A DNA stretch of 64,000 nucleotides from Spirochaetia bacterium (GCA_963662795.1 OY759746.1:192001-256000), one strand, 5' to 3'. Counted from the first letter of the stretch, positions 3,435 to 14,660 are shown. The notes: generated by a model not told the origin, from the sequence alone. Translations and numbers: made by a program.

Positions 3435-5039
3435 ATGAATCTTTCTGAATATATTATTGATTTTCTTAAACAGGTGTCTGTAGAGCATGTCTTCGGTATA
3501 TCAGGTGCGAGAATAGAAACCTTTTTCCATGAAATACACAAATCAGAAATAAATATATCCCTTGTAACAGCAAAACATGAATTCTCTGCTGCTGCCATGG
3601 CATCTTCCTATGCCTGGTCCGGAAAATCTTTAGGTGTTGTTTCAACAACATCCGGCGGGGCCGCCTACAATATCATACCTGCTCTTGCCGAGGCTTATTG
3701 CACCGGGACACCGCTTCTTGCGATTATAGGGCAGCCTGCCAATAACAGAAATCTGTACGGCGCATTTCAGGAAACAAGCGGATTAAGCGGGACACCTGAC
3801 CTTATTGCCTCTTTTAAACCTGTTTCAAGGTTCTGTGCAAAAATTGGTTCTGCTGATGAAATACCTGAAATCATAAAGCAGGTTTACAAATTGCTTATAC
3901 TGGAAAAATCGGGACCTGCCGTGCTATTGATCCCTGAAAACCTCTTCATCTGTGAAACCGGGGGAGGAATATTTGAATGGCCCCTCGGAAAACCGGACAG
4001 CGCCATTGCATCAAATACCAGCCGGCAGAGAATTTCCGCAGGAAGGACCGTGTTCATCGCCGGAAGAGATATTTTAAGGGCAGGAGCCAGGAACCAGTTT
4101 TCCGGTCTTGTAAAAAGAATGAGGTGTCCTTTGGTATCAGCCCCGGATGCAAAAGAAGTGTTTGATAATTTCAGCCCGCTTTACAGGGGGACAATCGGGG
4201 TTATGGGTAATCCGTCGGCCCATGAAGCTGTTGAAAGGGCTGATACGGTTATTATCGCTGGAACAGACATGAATGAAACAGCCACATACGGATTAAGGGA
4301 AATCTTAAGTAAAAAAAATATTCTATATGCAGGTAAACTCCCCGTTCATCTGACAAAATTCACTCATATCAGCAGATCAATAATGGATGGCATAAGATAT
4401 ATATCGGAAAATATTGAAGCTGAAGAGGAAGATATACATGGAGATATAACTTACCTTAACAGCACCGGCAGCCCTTATGCCAGGATAATGAAAATAATCG
4501 AAAAAGATATTGTTTCGCCTTCCAATATATCAGTTGATGCCGGTTATTCCGGAATATATGCAGTACACACAATGAAAATACCCGAAGGTTCATCATTTCA
4601 CATATCCCTTTCAACCGCCGGCATGGGGTACAGTTTTGGCGATATAATCGGCGCGGCTGTCGCAACCGGAAGGAAAGGATACCTTATCGCAGGGGATGGT
4701 TCTTTTTTCATGAACGGTTTTGAAATACACACAGCTGTGGAATTAAGCCTGCCTGTAATATTTATAATACTCGACAACAGCGGCCACAGAACATGCAGCC
4801 TGAGGGAAAAAATATATTTCAATGAAATCAGCGGCAGTAATGATTTCAGGGATATATGTATCGGTAAAGGATTTAATGAAATTTTCCCCTCACTTAAATC
4901 GGCAGATGTTCAGACACCAGAGGAGCTTGAATACATTTTAAAGGAAAACAGGGAGCTTGGTTCCCCGCTATTGATTTCCATAAAAATTGATAATGAGGAA
5001 ATACCCCCATACCTGCCTCTGTTTAATAAAAGGAGTTAA
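3435..5039 (+). CDS. ThDP-dependent carboligase (acetolactate synthase-like; NzsH/CqsB3/ScyA-type acyloin synthase candidate)
   Basis: N-terminal FGISG...KHEFSAAAMA (cofactor-activating Glu), TTSGG, and ThDP motif GDGSFFMNG...ILDN. Tightly coupled to SRPBCC and KAS III genes. Confidence 0.85.
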   Translation: MNLSEYIIDFLKQVSVEHVFGISGARIETFFHEIHKSEINISLVTAKHEFSAAAMASSYAWSGKSLGVVSTTSGGAAYNIIPALAEAYCTGTPLLAIIGQPANNRNLYGAFQETSGLSGTPDLIASFKPVSRFCAKIGSADEIPEIIKQVYKLLILEKSGPAVLLIPENLFICETGGGIFEWPLGKPDSAIASNTSRQRISAGRTVFIAGRDILRAGARNQFSGLVKRMRCPLVSAPDAKEVFDNFSPLYRGTIGVMGNPSAHEAVERADTVIIAGTDMNETATYGLREILSKKNILYAGKLPVHLTKFTHISRSIMDGIRYISENIEAEEEDIHGDITYLNSTGSPYARIMKIIEKDIVSPSNISVDAGYSGIYAVHTMKIPEGSSFHISLSTAGMGYSFGDIIGAAVATGRKGYLIAGDGSFFMNGFEIHTAVELSLPVIFIILDNSGHRTCSLREKIYFNEISGSNDFRDICIGKGFNEIFPSLKSADVQTPEELEYILKENRELGSPLLISIKIDNEEIPPYLPLFNKRS

Positions 5040-5040
5040 T

Positions 5041-5685
5041 ATGAATATTCCGGAAATAAGCGTGATTGAAGGGCTTAAAAGGTTTGAAAACTGCGGCATA
5101 GATAAATTTCAGTCGGATCTCATGGAAATGACACATACAGTCTACAGACATGATGATGTATACGGAAATTTCTGTTCAATCCAGGCATACATCGACTGCC
5201 CTCCAGAAACTGTATTCAGCTATATGTCTGACATACACTCCCTTGAAGAATGGACCTACTCCTTAAGGATTTATAAAAAAGTGAAGAACGACCTTTATGA
5301 AGGGGTTGATCTGCTGGGGGAAGACAGCAGTATTTTCTGCCGTGTTGTATCAAACAAAGAGGCATTAACTGTTGATTACCATTGCGCATGGGACCAGGGA
5401 GAGGATCTCTGGATGATCTATCTTAACAGGATAGTACCTGCCGAACCGGTCCTTAAAAAACCGGGATCTGTAGTATTCTGGCAGAACTGCAGGCACCCTT
5501 ATTATGACAATAATCCATATCCTGAAAAAGCACCGCCCGGAAGAGTATGGGTGGGCGAGCTATGGGACTATTTTTACGCAGGGCATACTGTTGAGCTTGA
5601 TAACCTTAAAAAAATACTGGAATACAGGCATAAAAATAATTTTCCTGCCGGCCCCTATCCTGTAAATAAGGTTAATGAAGAATGA
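5041..5685 (+). CDS. SRPBCC/START-fold cyclase-aromatase (NzsI/CqsB2 carbazole synthase-like)
   Basis: Start moved to ATG 5041 behind AGGAG. YIDCPPETVFSYMSD..LEEW is an SRPBCC N-terminal pattern; C-terminal helix GHTVELDNLKKILE; context between ThDP and KAS III genes. Confidence 0.75.
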   Translation: MNIPEISVIEGLKRFENCGIDKFQSDLMEMTHTVYRHDDVYGNFCSIQAYIDCPPETVFSYMSDIHSLEEWTYSLRIYKKVKNDLYEGVDLLGEDSSIFCRVVSNKEALTVDYHCAWDQGEDLWMIYLNRIVPAEPVLKKPGSVVFWQNCRHPYYDNNPYPEKAPPGRVWVGELWDYFYAGHTVELDNLKKILEYRHKNNFPAGPYPVNKVNEE

Positions 5686-6683
5686 ATATTGTGATAAAAG
5701 GGGCTGAAACCTTTTTCCCTGAAAATATTGTTAAAAACAGCTTTTTCACCGGTTCCGGCAAAAGTGAAGACAATCCCATGTTCAGGGGAACATCTGAAAG
5801 AAGACACTGCAAAAGAGATGACATGGGATGGGATTTTCTTGTAAATGCTTCCAGGAAAATTTTCGACAGGTTCGGGATTAAGCCGTCTGAAATTGATCTT
5901 TTTCTTGCCAATTCTGCGATGCTCGACATTCCCTTCACAGGAGCCGGGGCGGCATGGGCACACAAGGCAGGGGCAAAACCCCGTCATGTTTACGATATTC
6001 ACAGCAGCGGCTGCACATCCTTTGTTTTTATGCTTGAACTGGCCGGCATTTTAATGAAATCGAGAAATATCCGCTATGCCCTGATCGGGAATGTGCAGAC
6101 TTCTGCCGGAAAAATATTTGCTCATCCGCAGAATATTGATAAACCCCAGTCTGTTGTCCCGGGTGACGGGTGCGGCGTGGCTCTTCTTGAGGCATCAGAA
6201 AATTTCGGCGAAAACTGCGGGCTCCTGCTGGAAAGCGCAACCAGGTGCCATGGGGAATTCGCTGAGGATATGAATATTGAAAAACCGGACGGAACATACT
6301 GGTGGGAACCTTCTGAAAAAATGGGAATTATTGAATTCTCAAAATCGCGCATCTTTAAAATAATATCAAGAGGGAACAGCTCTGTACCGGACAGGATCAG
6401 TGAAGTCTGTGAAATTAATGGAAAAAAGATTTCAGATATCGATTTTCTCATAACAAATCAGCCTAATCCTGTTTTCTTAAGAAACTGGAGGGAATATGCA
6501 GAGCTGCCTGAAGACAGGATGTATCATTCCTTTGATAAATACGGCAACCTGTTCGGCGCCGCAATGCCTGTTAACCTGTCTGAAGCACTGGAAAAGAAGC
6601 TGATAAAAAAAGGTGATCTTCTCTGCCTGGCAGGATTCTCCCATGCAGGGGATTATTCCTCGGCAACCCTTATTCAGTATTAG
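5682..6683 (+). CDS. 3-oxoacyl-ACP synthase III-like condensing enzyme (NzsJ/CqsB1-like)
   Basis: ATGA overlap with the upstream gene; SGCTSF catalytic Cys, PGDG, TNQPN, YGNLFGA; thiolase-fold length of 333 aa. Confidence 0.85.
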   Translation: MNIVIKGAETFFPENIVKNSFFTGSGKSEDNPMFRGTSERRHCKRDDMGWDFLVNASRKIFDRFGIKPSEIDLFLANSAMLDIPFTGAGAAWAHKAGAKPRHVYDIHSSGCTSFVFMLELAGILMKSRNIRYALIGNVQTSAGKIFAHPQNIDKPQSVVPGDGCGVALLEASENFGENCGLLLESATRCHGEFAEDMNIEKPDGTYWWEPSEKMGIIEFSKSRIFKIISRGNSSVPDRISEVCEINGKKISDIDFLITNQPNPVFLRNWREYAELPEDRMYHSFDKYGNLFGAAMPVNLSEALEKKLIKKGDLLCLAGFSHAGDYSSATLIQY

Positions 6684-6694
6684 AAGTAAATTTT

Positions 6695-7468
6695 TTATGA
6701 AAGCAGGGTAGAGATATCATCCGGGTACAGAACCGTAATACCTTCACTTTCCTCTGCTTCTTCCAATTCTTCAGGAAACACATAGCCCCAGGAAGCAAGA
6801 TAGTATGAAGCGCCTGCAAGTTCTCCGCTGCCCTGAAGGGAATATATGGTTTTCAGCCTGTCTTCAACTATATAAGTGTTTTCAGGGGAAAACTGCTCCT
6901 TTTCAAGTATCTCAAGAATTATCTCTTTTTTGGATTTTCCGGTTTCAAGGCCGTGAATCATACCTGGATCAAACGGGATTCCGAAATAAGACAGAAGCTT
7001 TACGATAAATATCTTTTCCTTGGTTGTGATTATATGCACTGACTTGAAATTATCACGGGCCGTATCAGTCAGGGCAGCAGCGCAATCATAAAGCCTGTGC
7101 CATGAGAGCCAGTTTGCCGGCCTGAGCCTTGCCCAGTCTACGCGCACTTTCCCGTAAAGCCTGACAAGTTTGTCGCGGTTCATGGAAACAGAGGTGAAAA
7201 TCTGCTCCTTCATGAAATTAAACTTCTCTTTTAAAAAACTTTCACTGTAGCCTTCGTCAATTGCCTTTACAAGAGCTATTGCCTCATATCCTGTTTCAAG
7301 TAAAGGCCTGAGTTTTATGAATTTCTGAAGATGTTTTTGAGGGATATCAGAGCCCCTCCACTCATCCCACAATTCACTCCCGGCAAGCCAGCCTGTTCTG
7401 GCTGTTTCGCGGGAGCTGTCGCAGATTATTCCGTCAAAATCGAGAAAAAGGATTTTTTCATGTCTCAT
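6695..7468 (-). CDS. HAD-superfamily hydrolase/phosphatase
   Basis: Motif I FLDFDGIICDS, motif II ITTK, motif IV VEDR, and ASWGY. Confidence 0.85.
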   Translation of the reverse strand: MRHEKILFLDFDGIICDSSRETARTGWLAGSELWDEWRGSDIPQKHLQKFIKLRPLLETGYEAIALVKAIDEGYSESFLKEKFNFMKEQIFTSVSMNRDKLVRLYGKVRVDWARLRPANWLSWHRLYDCAAALTDTARDNFKSVHIITTKEKIFIVKLLSYFGIPFDPGMIHGLETGKSKKEIILEILEKEQFSPENTYIVEDRLKTIYSLQGSGELAGASYYLASWGYVFPEELEEAEESEGITVLYPDDISTLLS

Positions 7469-7473
7469 CCGGT

Positions 7474-7926
7474 TTAAATATTCAGCACTTTTTTCAGGGT
7501 TTCAGGATCAAGGCGGAATTCGGATCCCTTCCCCTCATGAAAGTGATGCTCCCTTAAAAGATGTATTGATATTGTTGAAAAAAGTATTTTCCTGTTATTT
7601 TTTATATTTACGGCCTCACATGTAATCTTCCTGTGTATACCGTCTTCAAAAGGGCAAGGCAGATGCCCCCTTGCCTCAAGAGTCCTTACAAGCCATTTAT
7701 CATCAACAGTTGTAAACTCACCAAGTCCCCTTTCCCCCTGGTCAAGAAGATATTCAAGAGCAGTGCAGACCTTCTCATAATCAAGTGAATGGTATTCCAT
7801 CCGCTCTTCATCTTCCGTAATTATATCTTTGATATCCCTTTCATCATCACCGAGAAATCCGCCTGCCGTAATTACGCCTGGCGCCATGTTTCCTTGAGCT
7901 TTTTTATATGCCGGGGTCATTTTCAT
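7474..7926 (-). CDS. Hypothetical soluble protein (150 aa) with Cys/His cluster, in the Nqr-like operon
   Basis: Start moved to ATG 7926 behind AAGGAGG. Contains GFLG, RGHLPCPF, GIH and HLLREHHFHEG..FRLDP; lies 25 bp after nqrF-like gene. Confidence 0.75.
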   Translation of the reverse strand: MKMTPAYKKAQGNMAPGVITAGGFLGDDERDIKDIITEDEERMEYHSLDYEKVCTALEYLLDQGERGLGEFTTVDDKWLVRTLEARGHLPCPFEDGIHRKITCEAVNIKNNRKILFSTISIHLLREHHFHEGKGSEFRLDPETLKKVLNI

Positions 7927-7951
7927 GCTGTTTTCCTCCTTAAAAGACAAA

Positions 7952-9067
7952 TCAGGCAAAATTATCAAAATAAATCTTTTCAAGCGGAATTCCGTTATCT
8001 GTCAGTACACTTTTACAGGCGGTAATCATGCCCGGACTTCCGCAGAGGTATCCCTCCCTGTCAGCTTCAGTTGAGATTTTCTCTTTTAGATAACTGTTCA
8101 GTACCGCTGTAATCAGTCCTTTTTCACCGCTCCAGTTATCTGATTCCTCCGGTTCCGAGAGCGCTGGTACAAAATGGAACTTGTCCCATTTCTTCTCAAG
8201 TTCCCTAAGCTCATCAAGATAAAACATGTCTTTACCGGTTCTTGCTCCGAAGAAATACCACACTTCCCTGTTGTTGATTTTTCTTTCGTACATATCGTTG
8301 AAAATAGCTTTAAAAGGAGCCATTCCGGAACCGCCTGCGATGCAAACCATTGTCGCATCAGTTTCCATTCTGTGAAAATCGCCGAACGGACCGATTACTT
8401 TAACATTCTGCCCTTCCTTAAGCTCAGTATGAACCCAGGTAGTGGCAATCCCTCCGGGAACCAGTCTTACAAGAATCTCGACATGGTTTTTATCGGAAGG
8501 AGTTGAAGACATGGAATAAGCCCTCTGAGTCTCTCCCTTTATTTTACCGTAGGGGGGGACCACAAGCTGAACATACATCCCTGCCTCAAATTCTATCTTT
8601 TCCTCACCGATTGATATCAAAACCTCTTTTATATCATGCGTTATGTCTTTTATCTTTTCGACAACACCTTCAATCTGTTTTACATTGAACAGAACATCAG
8701 GTATCTCGATTTCAATATCTTTTTTTACCTTGATCTGGCATGATAATCTCGTGTTAATGTCAATCTCTTCTTTTGTAAGATAAGGTATCTCTGTCGGAAG
8801 GTGCGGTCCGACATCGCTTTTAACAACACACTTGCATGCTCCGCAGCTGCCTCTGCCTCCGCAGGCTGAGGGGAGAAAAATATCGTTGCCGGCAAGCAGC
8901 TGGAGAAGGTTTGCTCCGCCCTTTACATCCAGTTCTTTTTTCCCCTTGTTTATGACAATTTTTACAATTCCATAGTTGTTTACAATCATATCCAGAACAG
9001 ATATCAGCGCAGCAAGAACAGCCGCGATACTGGAAACAATCAAAGGCGCAATAATAATAACACTCAT
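7952..9067 (-). CDS. nqrF: NqrF-like NADH-oxidising subunit (TM anchor, 2Fe-2S, FAD, NAD domains)
   Basis: N-terminal TM; SACGGRGSCGAC...RLSCQ; RAYS; GPFG; IAGGSGMAP; YFFGAR; YLCG; C-terminal FDNFA. Confidence 0.9.
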   Translation of the reverse strand: MSVIIIAPLIVSSIAAVLAALISVLDMIVNNYGIVKIVINKGKKELDVKGGANLLQLLAGNDIFLPSACGGRGSCGACKCVVKSDVGPHLPTEIPYLTKEEIDINTRLSCQIKVKKDIEIEIPDVLFNVKQIEGVVEKIKDITHDIKEVLISIGEEKIEFEAGMYVQLVVPPYGKIKGETQRAYSMSSTPSDKNHVEILVRLVPGGIATTWVHTELKEGQNVKVIGPFGDFHRMETDATMVCIAGGSGMAPFKAIFNDMYERKINNREVWYFFGARTGKDMFYLDELRELEKKWDKFHFVPALSEPEESDNWSGEKGLITAVLNSYLKEKISTEADREGYLCGSPGMITACKSVLTDNGIPLEKIYFDNFA

Positions 9068-9079
9068 GAAAAGCTCCTC

Positions 9080-9673
9080 CTACTGTACATTTACCATTCC
9101 GGAAAAACCGATAAATGCCATAGCCATAAAACCGATTGTTATAAGAGTGATACCCGGGCCTTTAAGCCCCGCGGGAACAGGCGCGTTCTGTACTTTTTTC
9201 TGTATTGCAGATAAGGCCATAATGGCAAGCCACCAGCCAAGCCCTGAGCCGATTGAAAAGAAAAGAGTCTGCATAAGATTGTATTTTCTTATCTCGATAA
9301 AAAGGACAACACCAAGAATCGCGCAGTTTACTGTAATAAGGGGAAGAAAAATCCCCAGAGACATGTAAAGAGCGGGAGACACCCTGTCAATTACCATTTC
9401 AAGAACCTGCACCGTGGCTGCAATAACAATAATAAAAACAATATATCTAAGATAAAGAAGTCCGTAGGGAATGAGAATATAATGCAGCACAAGCCAGTTT
9501 ATTATACCTGTGAAACCCAGAACTACCGTGACAGCAAGCCCCAGACCGTTTGAGGATTTCATATCTTTTGAGATTGAAATGAATGAACACATTCCGAGAA
9601 AGTTTGAAAGAAGTATATTGCTTGTAAAAATTGATGCTATAAAAAGCGTTACAAGATTAATGTCAGGCGCCAT
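9080..9673 (-). CDS. nqrE: NqrE/RnfA-family membrane subunit
   Basis: NFLGMCSF, LGIFLPLITVNCAILG, GLKGPGITLITIG; six TM segments. Confidence 0.9.
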   Translation of the reverse strand: MAPDINLVTLFIASIFTSNILLSNFLGMCSFISISKDMKSSNGLGLAVTVVLGFTGIINWLVLHYILIPYGLLYLRYIVFIIVIAATVQVLEMVIDRVSPALYMSLGIFLPLITVNCAILGVVLFIEIRKYNLMQTLFFSIGSGLGWWLAIMALSAIQKKVQNAPVPAGLKGPGITLITIGFMAMAFIGFSGMVNVQ

Positions 9674-10277
9674 TGGTTTTCTCCTTTTTCAGAATCAAGG
9701 TTTTGCTTACCCAGACAACAGCTCCGAGAAGAAAAAACGCGCTCGGAGGCATAACCATTATTGTCCATTTTGTAAAGAATTCAGGCATCACTGGAAATCC
9801 GAATATAGTCCCGAATCCCGCAAGTTCACGTATTGTTGCAATTACAAGAAGTACCCACATATAACCGATTCCAGAAGTTATACCGTCCCAGAAAGATATC
9901 AATGGAGGATTGGATCTAGCAAATGCCTCTGCCCTTCCCATGATAATGCAGTTGGTGATTATAAGTCCTACATAAGGGCCGAGAGATTTGCTGATTTCAG
10001 GAAGATATGCTCTCAGGATTATATCGACAATAATAACGTAAAATGCTATTACAAGTGTCTGTATAATCATTCTTACCTTATCAGGAATAAGAGCTTTCAG
10101 GAGAGAAAGTGTAAAATTTGAAAACCCTGTAACAAAAACGAGGCCAAGCGACATGATCAGGGTATTGGTAAGATTGTTTGTTACAGCAAGTGTTGAACAA
10201 ATTCCAAGTACCTGTATAAAAACAGGATTGTTTGTCCACATATTGCCTTTAAATATTTTTACCGCGCTGCTGTTCAT
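9663..10277 (-). CDS. nqrD: NqrD/RnfE-family membrane subunit
   Basis: NNPVFIQVLGICSTLAVT, YVGLIITNCIIMGRAEAFA, IRELAGFG, PPSAFF. Confidence 0.9.
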   Translation of the reverse strand: MNSSAVKIFKGNMWTNNPVFIQVLGICSTLAVTNNLTNTLIMSLGLVFVTGFSNFTLSLLKALIPDKVRMIIQTLVIAFYVIIVDIILRAYLPEISKSLGPYVGLIITNCIIMGRAEAFARSNPPLISFWDGITSGIGYMWVLLVIATIRELAGFGTIFGFPVMPEFFTKWTIMVMPPSAFFLLGAVVWVSKTLILKKEKTNGA

Positions 10278-10909
10278 TTTCCTCTCCCCTCCTTTGCAAG
10301 TCCTGCAATAACATTGTTGACTATTGTCTGAATTGACGCGCTTGTAAGCGATGCCCCGGTAATGCCCTCAACCTCGCTGTTTGTCGGGTCGCTGTCAGAG
10401 CCTCCTGAACCTTTTCTCACTTTTATGGCCGCATCGTCCGATGCAATTGCCTCATTCCTGAACTGGTCCTTGAACCACTTTTCATCAATCCTTCCGCCGA
10501 GACCTGGAGTTTCGTTGTGGGAGATTATCTCAAGCCCTTTTATCGTTTTAAAATCAGGTGTTACTGCTATAACGCCTGTAATTGTTCCCCAAAGCCCGCT
10601 TCCGGAAAAAAGCTTCAGGACAAGTTCTTCTCCATTGACTGTTGCCTTTATTGTTTTTGTAAATTGAGCAGCATCGCCTTCTGTTTTAGCTACAGCATCC
10701 GGAAAATATTTTTCAAAGAGTTTTTGTGTTTCATTTTTATCCTTAAACTCAACTCCTGCTGACTTAAGAAATGCCGAGTAAAACGATATTCTAGTATTGG
10801 CAGCTGTTTTTTCAGCTGTCAGACTGTCCGCAAGTGAAAGAAAAAATACAAAGAAAAATGACGCGGCAAATGTAAAAATAACTGTATAAAAAAAGTTGTT
10901 TTTATTCAT
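10274..10909 (-). CDS. nqrC: NqrC/RnfG-family FMN-binding subunit
   Basis: Start moved to ATG 10909. N-terminal TM, GSGLWGTI, HNETPGLGGRI, and flavinylation-type motif GITGASLTS. Confidence 0.85.
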   Translation of the reverse strand: MNKNNFFYTVIFTFAASFFFVFFLSLADSLTAEKTAANTRISFYSAFLKSAGVEFKDKNETQKLFEKYFPDAVAKTEGDAAQFTKTIKATVNGEELVLKLFSGSGLWGTITGVIAVTPDFKTIKGLEIISHNETPGLGGRIDEKWFKDQFRNEAIASDDAAIKVRKGSGGSDSDPTNSEVEGITGASLTSASIQTIVNNVIAGLAKEGRGK

Positions 10910-10913
10910 TTCA

Positions 10914-11843
10914 TTACCCCTTTGCCTGCTCCGGCGCAGCTTCCCTGAAAGGACCGGCCTTTTTTTTGGCGACAAGTTCATCAATCAGCGTTGCGAATGT
11001 ATTGCCGAAAAGAATCGCAAAGCTAGTCCCTTCCGGGAAAAGGGAAAATATTCTTACTATTGCCGCTGTAAATCCGATTATTGATCCGTAAATCCACAGG
11101 GAGAGCGGCTTTTTCGGAGCAGATACCGGATCGGTTGTCATGAATACCGCAACAAACAGGATACTTCCGGAAAGAAGTCCTTCAAGAGGGGGAAATGCCT
11201 TTACAACACCGGCAGCAAAGAGAGCTCCTGATAAAACAGTAAAAGATATTAAAGTGGAAGCCATTGTCCGCCAGTTTGCGGTTTTTGTATAAACAAGATA
11301 TAAGGCAGCAAGAATGATCAGAATTGCTGCCCCTTCTCCGGCAGAACCTGCCCTTAACCCTGACAAGAGATGCCACAGGTCAGGAAGTACCCCTTCCCTC
11401 ATCATCTCAAGCGGTGTTGCGCTTGTCATCCCGTCAATAGCTTTAAGGCCGAAAATTGACGGGGCAAGCCATAGCGTTGTCATCTTGCCGGGGAAAGCTA
11501 TATATATAAAAAGGCGCCCTGTAATGGCAGGATTAAAAATATTCCGTCCGAATCCGCCGTAAACACATTTTCCGAATAGAACCCCGAAAATAATTCCTAC
11601 TGCGGCAATCCAGAAAGGGACTGCGGGCGGAAGGGAGAGTGTATAAATCATACAGGTAACAAGAACTGCTTCAGATGTTTTCTTGCCGCTTTTTTTCATA
11701 AACAGATATTCGGTCAGTATGCCTGCGGCAAAGACCAGGACTGAAACAGCAAGGAATTTAATACCATAAATAAAAACAGCAAAAAGAAAGACCGGAGTAA
11801 GTGCATAAAGCACTTTTCTCATTATTTGTTGTTTTTGAAACAA
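10914..11843 (-). CDS. NqrB/RnfD-family subunit (short, RnfD-length form)
   Basis: TTG start behind AGGAGG; YGGFGRNIFNPA, TSATPL (FMN site), GSAGE, FMTTDPVS, FAILFGN; only 309 aa. Confidence 0.88.
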   Translation of the reverse strand: MFQKQQIMRKVLYALTPVFLFAVFIYGIKFLAVSVLVFAAGILTEYLFMKKSGKKTSEAVLVTCMIYTLSLPPAVPFWIAAVGIIFGVLFGKCVYGGFGRNIFNPAITGRLFIYIAFPGKMTTLWLAPSIFGLKAIDGMTSATPLEMMREGVLPDLWHLLSGLRAGSAGEGAAILIILAALYLVYTKTANWRTMASTLISFTVLSGALFAAGVVKAFPPLEGLLSGSILFVAVFMTTDPVSAPKKPLSLWIYGSIIGFTAAIVRIFSLFPEGTSFAILFGNTFATLIDELVAKKKAGPFREAAPEQAKG

Positions 11844-11892
11844 GATAATCCTCCTGAACAGATGAAAGATAATAAAAACTGATATATTTCAC

Positions 11893-11921
11893 ATTGTAAT
11901 ATAACTGAAGGGTTTTGACAA
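11893..11921 (-). promoter_or_regulatory. Sigma70-type promoter of the Nqr-like operon
   Basis: Minus strand TTGTCA-N17-TACAAT, 50 bp upstream of the nqrB-like start. Confidence 0.65.
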
Positions 11922-12008
11922 ACGCAATATTATAAACATCAGGACGGAAACCTGCTTATATACTGTTGTCCAATAAGCTGATTTCAAATATATTTTATCA
12001 TTAAAACC

Positions 12009-12920
12009 ATGAAAAACAACGATAACGCCTCAAAAGGCAGTACAATTGATAAAAACGGTTATTTACAGGCTCTTTCCGCATATATAATCTGGGGATTGCT
12101 CCCGATATACTGGAAAGCACTAAAACATGTAATGCCGCTCCAGATTATGATAAACAGGGCCCTCTGGAGCTTTGTACTGTTATTTCTGATTTCGCTGATA
12201 AGAAAGAAAAATACGTTCGGATATCTAAAAGATCCTAAAACATTTTTCAAAATTACTGCGGCAAGTATTATTCTCTCCGCAAACTGGCTTACATACATAT
12301 TTGCCGTAAACAGCGGAAGAATTCTGGAAGCAAGCATGGGATACTACATAACTCCACTCGTAAACATAGCGCTGGGCCTTATCGTTTTCAGGGAAAAACT
12401 CAACCGCGTCCAGTACACGTCCATTGCATTTGCCACAGCCGGTGTTCTTTACAAAACTATTGAGTACGGCAGGTTCCCCTATATTTCTCTCTTTCTTGCG
12501 CTCTCATTCGGTCTTTACGGCATGTTCAAAAAATACTTTTCGCTTGATTCAATAACAGGTCTGATGACGGAAACACTGATTCTGACACCTTTCGGCATCG
12601 CTGTAATTATCTATCTTCAGCTTAAAGGGGTTAACTCACTTTTTACGGTTTCGCTTACAACCGACCTGCTGCTGATAGGATCCGGAATAATAACAGCTGT
12701 ACCGCTGATCATGTTTGCCGAAGGCGCTAAAAAGATTCCCATGTCTGCCATAGGATTCCTTCAGTACGTCGCTCCAACGCTGATGCTTCTAACCGGTGTT
12801 TTTTTATACGAAGAGGAGTTCACTGTGAGTCACCTGATAACTTTTTCATTAATATGGACAGGGCTTGCAGTCTATACTTACTCGCTGTTTAAATCTTCGA
12901 ATAAGAGATCGGACCATTAA
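12009..12920 (+). CDS. rarD: RarD / EamA-family (DMT) permease
   Basis: AYIIWGLLPIYWK, ANWLTYIFAVN, EASMGYYITPL, GFLQYVAPT; about ten TM segments. Confidence 0.92.
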   Translation: MKNNDNASKGSTIDKNGYLQALSAYIIWGLLPIYWKALKHVMPLQIMINRALWSFVLLFLISLIRKKNTFGYLKDPKTFFKITAASIILSANWLTYIFAVNSGRILEASMGYYITPLVNIALGLIVFREKLNRVQYTSIAFATAGVLYKTIEYGRFPYISLFLALSFGLYGMFKKYFSLDSITGLMTETLILTPFGIAVIIYLQLKGVNSLFTVSLTTDLLLIGSGIITAVPLIMFAEGAKKIPMSAIGFLQYVAPTLMLLTGVFLYEEEFTVSHLITFSLIWTGLAVYTYSLFKSSNKRSDH

Positions 12921-12947: not shown

Positions 12948-14660
12948 CTACATAGCAAAGCCGTTATCAACGCTCAGATCTGTAAAACCTTCAGGAGGAA
13001 GCCCGAAACCGCTGTAGTTAAGATGGCGCAGGGTTGATGTCCTGTAGTCATGTATCATGGTTTTAAGCCATTCAAATTCATCCCCGGTCATGTCTCCTTC
13101 AAGATATTTAAGCATTACCAGCATTGTTTCGTAGCGCCATTCAGTAAGATTGTTTTTCAGAAATTCCTCTTTTGATATCAGGTATTTTTCAAGGACATCA
13201 AAATCTATCGGAGTAGTTTTTTCATCAAAACCCACCCTTTTCCAGAGCCTTGATATATATGGAGGATTATCATCGGCAACAGGGTGCCTTACAATAATCT
13301 GGGATGAATACTGAACCGGTTTATCTGGATCAGAAGGGAGATAGCGCATCTTGTTCTTCATGTCTATCCCCGCCTCCGCAAACAGGCGGCAGAAAACATA
13401 CCAGTTATCAAGCCCTTCTTTCCCCTTTACAGCAGGTTTTTCAAGAAAGACAAGATCTCTGGGACATTTGGGATAACCGAAGACCCATTCCGTATAATAC
13501 GATTTACCTTCAGAGCCTAAAGGCCTTGGAATATGGGGATAGCTGTAATGCCCTGCCGAAATAAAAGCATCCTCAAGTTTTTTAGCAAGAAAATGGCGGG
13601 CAAAATTGTCAAACCCTGAATAAAATGTGTTGCCGTGCCTTATTGAATGCCTCGCTACAGGGAATTCCTGCAGAGTATAGATAATCCCGTCAATTGACCT
13701 GAATCCCGACCTTATCTCAAGATCAAGGGTGTAATCAGGATTCGCCTTAATTCTTTTTGAATAGGCAAGGTCCTGAATCTCGCGGCCTATTTTATATGTT
13801 ATGGTCCTTGTTTTGCATGCTTCAAGCTCCTTTATATGACACTTGTGATGCCTGCTCATGTGGCTTGTTGTTGATTTACGATAGTCAAAGACAAGTTCGC
13901 TCATCCTCTCCATCTGGGGGAAATCGCATGGGGCGCATGACTTCATAAGGAACTCGAGTATAAGCGACATCATCTCGACCCTTTCCGGCTTAAGGTATTT
14001 ATCAAGCTTTTCCCTGTTCTCATCTATAAATTTCTCAAATTTTTTAAAATCTATGTGAAGGCTTTCCGAACCGAAATCAATCCTTTTCCAGAGCTTGGTA
14101 AGCATTTCGTCGGAATCTGAAATACTCGGCTCAAGCATGACAATGTTTTTTATGTAATATCCGTCGTTTTCAACTGTATCATCAAAAATACCTACACCAG
14201 CTTCATTAAAACAACCGGATGCAATATCCCACTCGTCGACTTTTATGGGATACCACTTTCCCGCTTCGTCATCGTAAAACTCTGGATAATAACCCTCATC
14301 GCCGAAGACCCATTCATAATAGTATATTCCGTCAATATCAGACCCGAGAGGCCTTGGAACATGGGAAAACTTATAGCGTCCTGACCTGAAAAAATAGTCG
14401 TCAAGCTTTTTTATAAGCACATGACGGAAGTAAACATTAAGGGCTGAAAGCGTTGCCTTGCTTTCAAGGCTTTTAAGCGTTATGTCTGAATCTGGGTTTG
14501 CGATTTTTGCAAGGTCTGTCCCCCGCGGTATCCTGCAGGCCGCGACAAAATCCTGTTCCGTCCTGATTATCCCGCCAAGCCCGGGAAAAATGTTTCTTAT
14601 CTGAATGTGAACTTCCGCGGAACCGCCGTACCCGCCGCAGCATATTGTTTCTATACCCAT
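12948..14660 (-). CDS. Hypothetical protein with two tandem homologous, kinase-like domains
   Basis: 570-aa ORF with internal duplication: HVPRPLGS..YYYEWVFG versus HIPRPLGS..YYTEWVFG; LWKRIDFG versus LWKRVGFD; DYRKST versus DYRTST. Confidence 0.85.
   Translation of the reverse strand: MGIETICCGGYGGSAEVHIQIRNIFPGLGGIIRTEQDFVAACRIPRGTDLAKIANPDSDITLKSLESKATLSALNVYFRHVLIKKLDDYFFRSGRYKFSHVPRPLGSDIDGIYYYEWVFGDEGYYPEFYDDEAGKWYPIKVDEWDIASGCFNEAGVGIFDDTVENDGYYIKNIVMLEPSISDSDEMLTKLWKRIDFGSESLHIDFKKFEKFIDENREKLDKYLKPERVEMMSLILEFLMKSCAPCDFPQMERMSELVFDYRKSTTSHMSRHHKCHIKELEACKTRTITYKIGREIQDLAYSKRIKANPDYTLDLEIRSGFRSIDGIIYTLQEFPVARHSIRHGNTFYSGFDNFARHFLAKKLEDAFISAGHYSYPHIPRPLGSEGKSYYTEWVFGYPKCPRDLVFLEKPAVKGKEGLDNWYVFCRLFAEAGIDMKNKMRYLPSDPDKPVQYSSQIIVRHPVADDNPPYISRLWKRVGFDEKTTPIDFDVLEKYLISKEEFLKNNLTEWRYETMLVMLKYLEGDMTGDEFEWLKTMIHDYRTSTLRHLNYSGFGLPPEGFTDLSVDNGFAM

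Follow-up and report, generated by a model that had tools for sequence, protein, structure and literature searches.

In this study, we found that a 64,000-nucleotide (nt) stretch of DNA from a Spirochaetia bacterium (GCA_963662795.1 OY759746.1:192001-256000; hereafter the window, whose positions serve as coordinates) carries an Nqr/Rnf-type gene cluster without NqrA, in which the five genes B-C-D-E-F are followed by a conserved, co-oriented sixth gene. Its product, a conserved soluble protein of 150 amino acids (aa) named X150 here, is the most informative feature of the cluster and was overlooked in an earlier note on this DNA. From its sequence features, we regard the cluster as genuine and functional and assign it to a separate lineage without NqrA, type 3 (T3), of the NqrF-bearing Nqr/Rnf family. 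By analogy with characterized relatives, the type-3 complex probably oxidises NADH and pumps Na+ or H+. We propose, with a probability of about 40%, that it is an NADH-oxidising ion pump with X150 as its cytoplasmic exit partner. This proposal draws on gene content, cofactor ligands, synteny, phylogenetic position and a rubredoxin fusion, all of which were observed directly.

The five genes are consecutive on the minus strand within 11843-7952, and open reading frame (ORF) calling together with Pfam and NCBIfam scans bears out the order given in the earlier note, B/D-C/G-D/E-E/A-NqrF (Table 1). The same note had placed a promoter about 50 bp before the first gene and had argued that the divergent rarD, 165 bp away, leaves no room for nqrA or rnfC. 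Indeed, the best promoter-like site of the region lies 49 nt upstream of the TTG start of the B gene, which has CAGGAGG just upstream; rarD (TIGR00688, 208 bits) starts at 12009, the intergenic space is 165 bp, and ORF calling found no ORF that fits in it. Neither nqrA nor rnfC nor rnfB was found in the cluster by ORF calling and family scans, as the note had stated. The B ORF is already maximal in its frame at 309 aa, and its alignment begins at residue 127 of Vibrio cholerae NqrB and at residue 22 of C. tetanomorphum RnfD; B therefore starts at the first membrane helix, again in agreement with the note. On family models B is nearly a tie between NqrB (205.8 bits) and RnfD (205.1 bits), and among solved structures RnfD of 7zc6 (130 bits) is marginally better than V. 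cholerae NqrB (126 bits). The NqrC-like subunit is less ambiguous, with 92.8 bits on the NqrC model vs 55 on RnfG, and 53 vs 31 bits against the corresponding chains in PDB. The NqrF-like subunit scores 278.9 bits on TIGR01941, below the cut-off of 295.

The NADH input and the wire of Fe-S clusters and flavin mononucleotide (FMN), which the note had considered present, are intact with respect to domains and ligands. The cysteines of D (C27 and C110) and of E (C29 and C117), which the note had pointed out within LGICS/NCII and LGMCS/VNCA, are invariant in 52/52 and 51/51 aligned homologues, respectively, and the four 2Fe-2S cysteines of F (C69, C75, C78, and C110) are invariant in 43/43. At the flavinylation site of B, TSAT143, Thr is found in all 43 Nqr-type rows (T1, T2, T3, and T3b), while the 10 Rnf rows have T in 7 and S in 3 (53 rows overall). 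In C, the corresponding [S/T]GA[S/T]-type motif reads TGAS; among 29 relatives, its flavinylated position (S212) is occupied by S in 15 and by T in 14, and it is S or T in 48/48 aligned rows. The complete set of cofactor ligands is retained in 29/29 type-3 loci. As a separate observation on NqrF, C242 (28/29) and C351 (27/29) are near-constant in type 3, with F/Y and V/A at these positions in 10/10 canonical NqrF proteins; judging from this pattern, a thiol pair or a ligand particular to this lineage is conceivable.

The source genome is represented by one contig of 3.93 Mb, with a marker-gene completeness of 98%. No nqrA is present in this complete genome, where the top match to TIGR01936 (41.8 bits; cut-off 321) is the RnfC gene. 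The only rnfC over cut-off (554.8 bits) heads a full rnfCDGEAB operon 3.1 Mb from the window cluster; every subunit of this operon scores as Rnf, and RnfB and RnfC are present only there. Thus, the orphan nqrA or rnfC that the earlier note had named as evidence against its view was not found. The genome has a single copy of apbE. It gave no match to NqrM in a search that is uninformative, as the control likewise matched no genome. As an aside, apbE lies 5 kb from a trio of UbiD, UbiA/MqnP-like and UbiX genes (L027 6315-13988; C1:2578314-2585987).

The six-gene unit is conserved among relatives. Of 11 genome loci found by the B protein, nine retain B-C-D-E-F and two are true Rnf operons; X150 comes next after nqrF in eight of the nine, including a Pseudothermotoga metagenome-assembled genome (MAG; L015). 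In metagenomes, 80 loci were found by alignment to X150 (7 duplicates), and in all 74 that have more than 140 nt upstream, nqrF lies directly upstream of X150; the full B-to-X150 order is seen in 30. In an even sample of 301 Spirochaetota genomes from 126 genera, X150 is present in 43 genomes (28 genera) and type-3 NqrF also in 43, with both in 42. The two genes are adjacent in 39 genomes, and three further pairs are split by contig ends. By comparison, X150 occurs in 0/17 canonical-Nqr genomes. Upstream of B, no NqrA or RnfC domain was detected in 35 ORFs from 18 non-duplicate loci, nor in L012, L015, L016, and L018. RnfC was also found in 17 of 18 carrier genomes checked. Beyond X150, the genes vary by locus (ferritin, GGDEF-EAL response regulator, DUF308, OTCase, and others among 30 ORFs), and therefore the conserved unit ends at X150.

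Some neighbours of the unit are worth recording. A ferritin gene lies directly beyond X150 in 4 of the 30 scanned ORFs (L035 772-1281, L040 2670-3185, L041 7511-8035, and L049 7931-8425), and a pyridine-nucleotide-disulphide oxidoreductase gene follows X150 in L050; these neighbours faintly suggest a link to iron or oxidative stress. At three of 18 loci, a small gene of the RseC/MucC family, which is tied to the Rsx/Rnf-type SoxR-reducing system of E. coli, is divergent just upstream of B (L050 1958-2386, L083 2502-2939, and L096 2501-2944). In one metagenome contig (L031 2795-7337) the type-3 operon is fragmented into many short ORFs (2 for B, 3 for D, 2 for E, and 4 for F) and represents either a decaying copy or a poor assembly.

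The X150 gene is preceded by an AAGGAGG ribosome-binding site, and no terminator-like site was seen between it and nqrF. The protein resembles no named family in the searches made: neither Pfam nor NCBIfam gave a match at a threshold as loose as E<=10, the best sequence match in PDB had an E of 0.46, and the family profile gave 0 matches there at E<=1. AlphaFold2 predicts its structure with high confidence (predicted local distance difference test, pLDDT, 94.9; predicted template modelling score, pTM, 0.88) as three N-terminal helices, a four-stranded sheet, and two further helices. Searches with this model, which exclude no family, gave nothing at E<=0.001 with Foldseek (best E 0.21) and a best Z of 2.6 with VIA-align over 48,161 chains, far below the tool's typical background of 7-8. 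The model has no predicted membrane helix, and on reading the sequence alone there is no signal-peptide-like N-terminus. The family is large, with 1443 representatives at E<=0.001 and 577 at E<=1e-10. Across this wide family, G26, D39, G87, P92, F129, G132, and R138 are invariant and G23, F24, D28, R30, K100, H127, and P141 nearly so, many of them within the motifs GFLGxDxR and HxFxxGxGSxFR. A three-histidine metal site (H122/H127/H128), conserved in the pump-linked subfamily, was considered and rejected as a family feature, as H122 and H128 vary across the wide family.

An indication of function comes from fusions. Among the 150 best X150 representatives, extra domains are rubredoxin (2), rubrerythrin (1), nitroreductase (1), peroxiredoxin-like (1), and part of an aldo-keto reductase (1). 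The fusion to a C-terminal rubredoxin is recurrent: it forms 22 clusters of proteins of 207-213 aa with 49-100% identity in another lineage, on contigs of up to 165 kb from several sources. For an X150-type domain that recurrently carries its own rubredoxin, the simplest role is that of a donor or acceptor of single electrons. By language-model embedding, the neighbours of X150 are unnamed clusters from Planctomycetota, Thermodesulfobacteriota, Fibrobacterota, and Cloacimonadota, along with DUF7919 clusters (0.95 and 0.91). DUF7919 (PF25535) gave no match to X150 at E<=10 and matched 0/41 diverse family members at E<=0.01; the X150 relative P0252 reached a sub-threshold 23.6 bits (cut-off 27), and a remote kinship is possible. 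Three long proteins, P0122 (885 aa), P0192 (2506 aa), and P0242 (945 aa), contain three to four X150-like stretches each and no Pfam domain; P0122 and P0192 are each represented by one sequence on one contig. Prediction of a complex between B and X150 scored 0.00 in two runs without controls, which is evidence neither way.

Comparison across Spirochaetota distinguishes three architectures of NqrF-bearing operons. Type 1, the canonical nqrABCDEF found in 17 genomes, has NqrF proteins scoring 579-696 bits and NqrA upstream of B in 10/10 loci examined. In three of the four canonical loci scanned downstream (of the 10), apbE follows nqrF (three ORFs of 353-374 aa); the canonical locus L146 has two downstream ORFs, neither of which is ApbE. 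Type 2 (L138 2885-8960 and L139 2949-8941) consists of an A-like subunit, B (362 aa), C, D, E, and F (364 aa). Its A-like subunit, of 465-504 aa, has an NQRA_2nd domain and a full-length match to V. cholerae NqrA (86 bits), and retains a two-[4Fe-4S] ferredoxin motif matching RnfC. The type-2 operon is followed by a 151-aa helical ORF without Pfam match and then a histidine kinase gene; that X150 is a diverged copy of this ORF was rejected, as there was no match with a hidden Markov model. The type-2 genomes G060 and G134 also carry a type-3 operon. Type 3 is the NqrA-less BCDEF with X150, along with two nested members without X150 whose B is 428-444 aa. Type-3 B ORFs are mostly about 295-340 aa (29 ORFs, 216-402 aa, the longest arising from over-extended starts) vs 386-427 aa in canonical operons, and the N-terminus of B is missing in type 3 and present in the types that bear an A subunit.

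Phylogeny places the window cluster with Nqr. The D/RnfE and E/RnfA proteins were analysed in one tree in which the paralogues root each other (83 rows, including 19 of 29 type-3 loci; IQ-TREE quick search), and B in a second (40 rows, LG+G4, 16 of 29 type-3 loci). In the D/E tree, NqrF-bearing types form one clade outside Rnf, with Shimodaira-Hasegawa-like approximate likelihood ratio test (SH-aLRT) supports of 97 and 99 in the two halves, and type 3 is monophyletic (99 and 99). In the D half, types 1 and 2 are sister groups (84); the E half is unresolved at this point. The B tree gives supports of 99 for Rnf, 85 for types 2 and 1 together, and 100 for type 3. Thus D, E, and B of the window type group with the NqrF-bearing types (97, 99, and 99), not with Rnf, in trees that are quick searches with 8-10 Rnf rows and canonical Nqr from Spirochaetota alone; the node joining types 1 and 2 has moderate support only. 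The term hybrid, used in the earlier note, was therefore an overstatement, as these subunits lie inside the NqrF-bearing clade. An A/C subunit is common to Rnf, type 1, and type 2; the most parsimonious reading of these sequences is therefore that type 3 lost this subunit together with the N-terminal segment of B, and acquired X150. An evolutionary intermediate, as the note had suggested, is unlikely for a lineage sister to canonical Nqr plus the Fe-S-bearing NqrA variant; this lineage instead appears to be a side branch that arose by loss. The type-2 Fe-S-bearing NqrA variant looks like a better candidate for the RnfC-to-NqrA intermediate predicted by Reyes-Prieto et al. 2014 (PMC4014512).

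These findings can be put together in a working model. Based on homology with solved NQR and RNF, NADH would reduce the flavin adenine dinucleotide (FAD) of membrane-anchored F, and single electrons would pass from the 2Fe-2S cluster of F to an intramembrane 2Fe-2S cluster held by D and E. From there they would cross to the FMN covalently bound to C on the outer side of the membrane and return, by way of the covalently bound FMN of B, to B's cytoplasmic face, and this movement would drive the export of Na+ or H+. In canonical NQR the electron then goes to quinone, in a pocket involving the NqrB N-terminus under NqrA, and in RNF it goes to RnfC. For the type-3 complex, the note had called the exit partner unknown, and we agree that no known one is encoded in the cluster. 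We infer that X150 may be the exit partner that replaces the A/C subunit, acting as a redox carrier or terminal reductase that is fed elsewhere by its fused rubredoxin. In that case, the complex would operate alongside Rnf as an NADH:X150 oxidoreductase that needs no quinone. A broader claim, that X150 is the founder of a novel group of small redox proteins of the cytoplasm whose fold is unsolved, and that in this lineage it replaces NqrA/RnfC as the exit and makes the six-gene unit a quinone-independent ion pump, seems to us rather doubtful at present.

Several observations weigh against X150 as the exit partner. Binding of X150 to the complex and a redox cofactor within it are both hypothetical, and the wide family has no conserved Cys/His cluster or metal site, C91 being C, S, or N. 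Two relatives nested in type 3, L018 and L140/G159, lack X150, with none genome-wide in G159; therefore the pump core can exist without it. In G059, an X150-like gene is not beside nqrF. The genome counts are drawn from related, non-independent genomes, and the fusions other than that to rubredoxin are singletons on single contigs (90% clusters) and could be gene-calling artefacts. Moreover, the source genome itself is in the minority that has a UbiA-UbiD-UbiX trio, and a prenylated aromatic acceptor is possible there. Regarding the two relatives without X150, their B proteins have 120-135 extra residues (L018 7001-8287 and L140 9505-10839). The insertion in L018 contains an additional pair of hydrophobic helices immediately ahead of the FMN site and is unlike that in L140; that these insertions are fused X150 was rejected, as there was no BLAST match.

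Alternatively, the complex may be an NADH:quinone (or prenyl-phenol) oxidoreductase without NqrA, with the acceptor held by B alone and X150 off the path, which we consider unlikely. The known prenylquinone pathways all require a UbiA-superfamily prenyltransferase. A UbiA-family gene (E<=1e-10) is present in 17/17 canonical-Nqr genomes vs 23/43 X150 carriers, in a comparison where genomes are interrelated and some incomplete. It is missing in 20 carriers, 12 of them at least 90% complete, and in none of the canonical-Nqr genomes, which argues against quinone as a general acceptor. UbiD of the menaquinone type (over the model cut-off) was found in 6/17 canonical-Nqr genomes and 3/43 carriers. 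These counts are a strong hint, not a proof, that quinone is not the general acceptor of X150-bearing complexes. The source genome speaks for both sides: its UbiD, in the trio with UbiA and UbiX, scores 604.5 bits on the menaquinone-decarboxylase model (cut-off 495.9), but profile searches found no MqnA/D, no MenD or MenG/UbiE above cut-off, and no cytochrome bd. In addition, the B N-terminal region, which takes part in the inhibitor and quinone pocket of canonical NQR, is gone. The accessible part of a 2025 review (PMC12174285) describes NqrA as cofactor-free with no assigned direct function and quinone as reduced at NqrB, in keeping with an acceptor site on B alone, whereas that of Reyes-Prieto 2014 (PMC4014512) reports that removal of NqrA blocks the assembly of canonical NQR.

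Just as unlikely in our judgement is that X150 is an assembly, cofactor-delivery, or protective factor (e.g. for riboflavin or the membrane Fe-S cluster), with something else as the acceptor. Strict synteny fits an accessory factor equally well as a subunit, and canonical operons carry the accessory gene apbE right after nqrF (3/3 scanned long ORFs). The two relatives that manage without X150, and the lack of a conserved metal-ligand cluster in the wide family, are also in line with such a role. However, a family of 1443 representatives is far wider than the pump, and the rubredoxin fusion in 22 clusters points to a general redox role, not to Nqr-specific maturation. An exit at the outer face is quite improbable. 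Here electrons would run from NADH through F, D/E, and the FMN of C to a periplasmic acceptor or enzyme, no cytoplasmic exit being needed. The missing A/C subunit does remove the known cytoplasmic exit, and partial NQR/RNF-like systems, in which electron flow is thought to be one-way to an extracytosolic FMN domain, are described in the accessible part of Méheust et al. 2021 (PMC8238504). Nevertheless, B is kept, with its flavinylated Thr invariant in all type-3 rows, in line with electrons returning through this subunit; the genes flanking the operon include no conserved secreted reductase or FMN-binding partner; and X150 has neither a membrane helix in its AlphaFold2 model nor, by reading its sequence, a signal-peptide-like N-terminus. 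Finally, it is hardly credible that RnfC (and RnfB) of the separate rnf operon also serve the cluster and turn it into an ordinary Rnf or NQR: a complete rnfCDGEAB is present in the source genome and RnfC in nearly all carriers checked, but that rnfC already has D, G, E, A, and B partners within its complete operon, the short type-3 B is missing an N-terminal segment that occurs in operons with an A/C subunit, and entry through NqrF with exit through RnfC would, from their known roles, lead from NADH to NAD+ with no driving force.

Table 1. The NqrA-less operon of the window and adjoining features
Feature	Position	Strand	Remarks
Promoter-like site, TTGTCA-17 nt-TACAAT	11893..11921	-	10/12 consensus matches; top score within 6400-12100; putative, by consensus match alone
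NqrB/RnfD-like membrane subunit (B), 309 aa	10914..11843	-	No N-terminal cytoplasmic segment; PF03116 (NQR2_RnfD_RnfE) 270 bits
NqrC-like FMN-binding subunit (C), 211 aa	10274..10909	-	FMN_bind/NqrC; from probable ATG 10909; longest ORF from 10984, 236 aa
NqrD-like subunit (D), 204 aa	9663..10277	-	Rnf-Nqr; NF006777 244.5 bits (above cut-off 235); RnfE 175-185 bits
NqrE-like subunit (E), 197 aa	9080..9673	-	Rnf-Nqr; NqrE 216 bits, RnfA 204 bits
NqrF-like NADH-oxidising subunit (F), 371 aa	7952..9067	-	Membrane anchor; Fer2 + FAD_binding_6 + NAD_binding_1
X150, conserved soluble 150-aa protein, proposed sixth component	7474..7926	-	Start 25 nt beyond nqrF
HAD-type hydrolase, 257 aa	6695..7468	-	PF00702, 27.3 bits; 5 nt beyond X150

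The HAD gene lies beyond X150 in close relatives only (L011-L014 and L028-L031), not in more distant loci. Convergent with the operon, at 3435-6683 on the plus strand, are genes for a thiamine-diphosphate enzyme (534 aa), a familyless 232-aa ORF, and a KAS III-like condensing enzyme (333 aa); the KAS-like gene also adjoins the HAD gene in the 96%-identical locus L028. On the other side, at 12948-14660 on the minus strand, there is a 570-aa ORF without Pfam match that, on reading, has two similar halves (repeated ...EWVFG..., ...LWKR.DF..., and ...DYR.ST...).

The NqrA-less five-gene layout is already known from genome papers since 2014, as the earlier note had suspected; what is new here is the sixth gene, the tree position of type 3, and the UbiA contrast across carriers. 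X150 provides a concrete and directly testable candidate partner, as it is co-located with the pump and its relatives are fused to rubredoxin. NqrBCDEF sits beside Rnf in fermenters and syntrophs, where each millivolt of energy conservation counts, and the fact that about half of the carriers have no quinone prenyltransferase changes which acceptor to assay. If X150 is indeed the exit module, strict fermenters could conserve energy from NADH oxidation while feeding a rubredoxin-type sink, e.g. oxygen or peroxide detoxification. In addition, the trees bear on Rnf-to-Nqr evolution by setting an NqrA-less side branch against the type-2 variant with an Fe-S-bearing NqrA-like subunit.

Among known systems, the closest is the Na+-NQR of V. 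cholerae, NqrABCDEF (PDB 7xk3 and 8a1u). Its B-F homologues have the identical gene order, the 2Fe-2S cysteines of F and D/E and the flavinylation sites of B and C are identical, and window D, E, and B fall in a common clade with canonical Nqr, outside Rnf. Unlike Na+-NQR, the source genome has no NqrA, and the window B is about 100 N-terminal residues short (309 aa vs about 386-427 aa for canonical NqrB with its N-terminal cytoplasmic region). The window F is also about 40 residues shorter (371 vs 406-467 aa) and below the NqrF cut-off, the operon has X150 and no adjacent apbE, and many carriers lack a UbiA-family gene. Rnf, RnfCDGEAB (C. tetanomorphum 7zc6 and A. woodii 9eri), has a homologous membrane core, and the window B is of RnfD length. 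Unlike Rnf, the window cluster contains neither RnfC (FMN, 2x[4Fe-4S], NAD+ site) nor RnfB (poly-ferredoxin), its entry module is NADH-oxidising NqrF, not ferredoxin-oxidising RnfB, and the genome's own Rnf operon is separate and in a different clade. Rubredoxin-fed terminal enzymes of anaerobes, such as rubrerythrin, receive single electrons from the rubredoxin centre. X150 is like them in its fusion to a C-terminal rubredoxin in 22 clusters and in one rubrerythrin fusion, and unlike them in having no sequence or fold likeness and no evident conserved metal site.

Previous reports of related clusters concern Pseudothermotoga thermarum and P. lettingae (PMC4148951), Clostridium ultunense, P. 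lettingae, and Alkaliphilus metalliredigens (PMC5924567), and Ca. Izimaplasma ZiA1 (PMC6256511); the published clusters include Tlet_0865-0869, Theth_1137-1141, and CUESP_0375-0379. In the accessible parts of these papers from 2014 and 2018, NqrBCDEF lies beside a separate Rnf and its electron acceptor is called unknown. Other work has drawn the boundaries differently: in the accessible parts, Reyes-Prieto 2014 (PMC4014512) requires all six subunits and reports no nqr operon in Thermotogae, and Méheust et al. 2021 (PMC8238504) defines NQR by NqrF alone and uses 'NQR/RNF-like' for a different class, with a fusion of B to an NAD domain. Our literature search, made outside subscription journals, turned up neither biochemical work on a complex without NqrA nor any reference to a sixth gene, and the supplements of PMC4014512 and PMC8238504 may list NqrA-less clusters. 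The published NqrBCDEF clusters match the window in five-gene order and in having no NqrA; unlike the present analysis, the accessible parts of those papers contain no sixth gene, no phylogeny against canonical Nqr, and no quinone comparison across carriers. The Pseudothermotoga MAG locus L015 belongs to the same clade as the window type and has X150.

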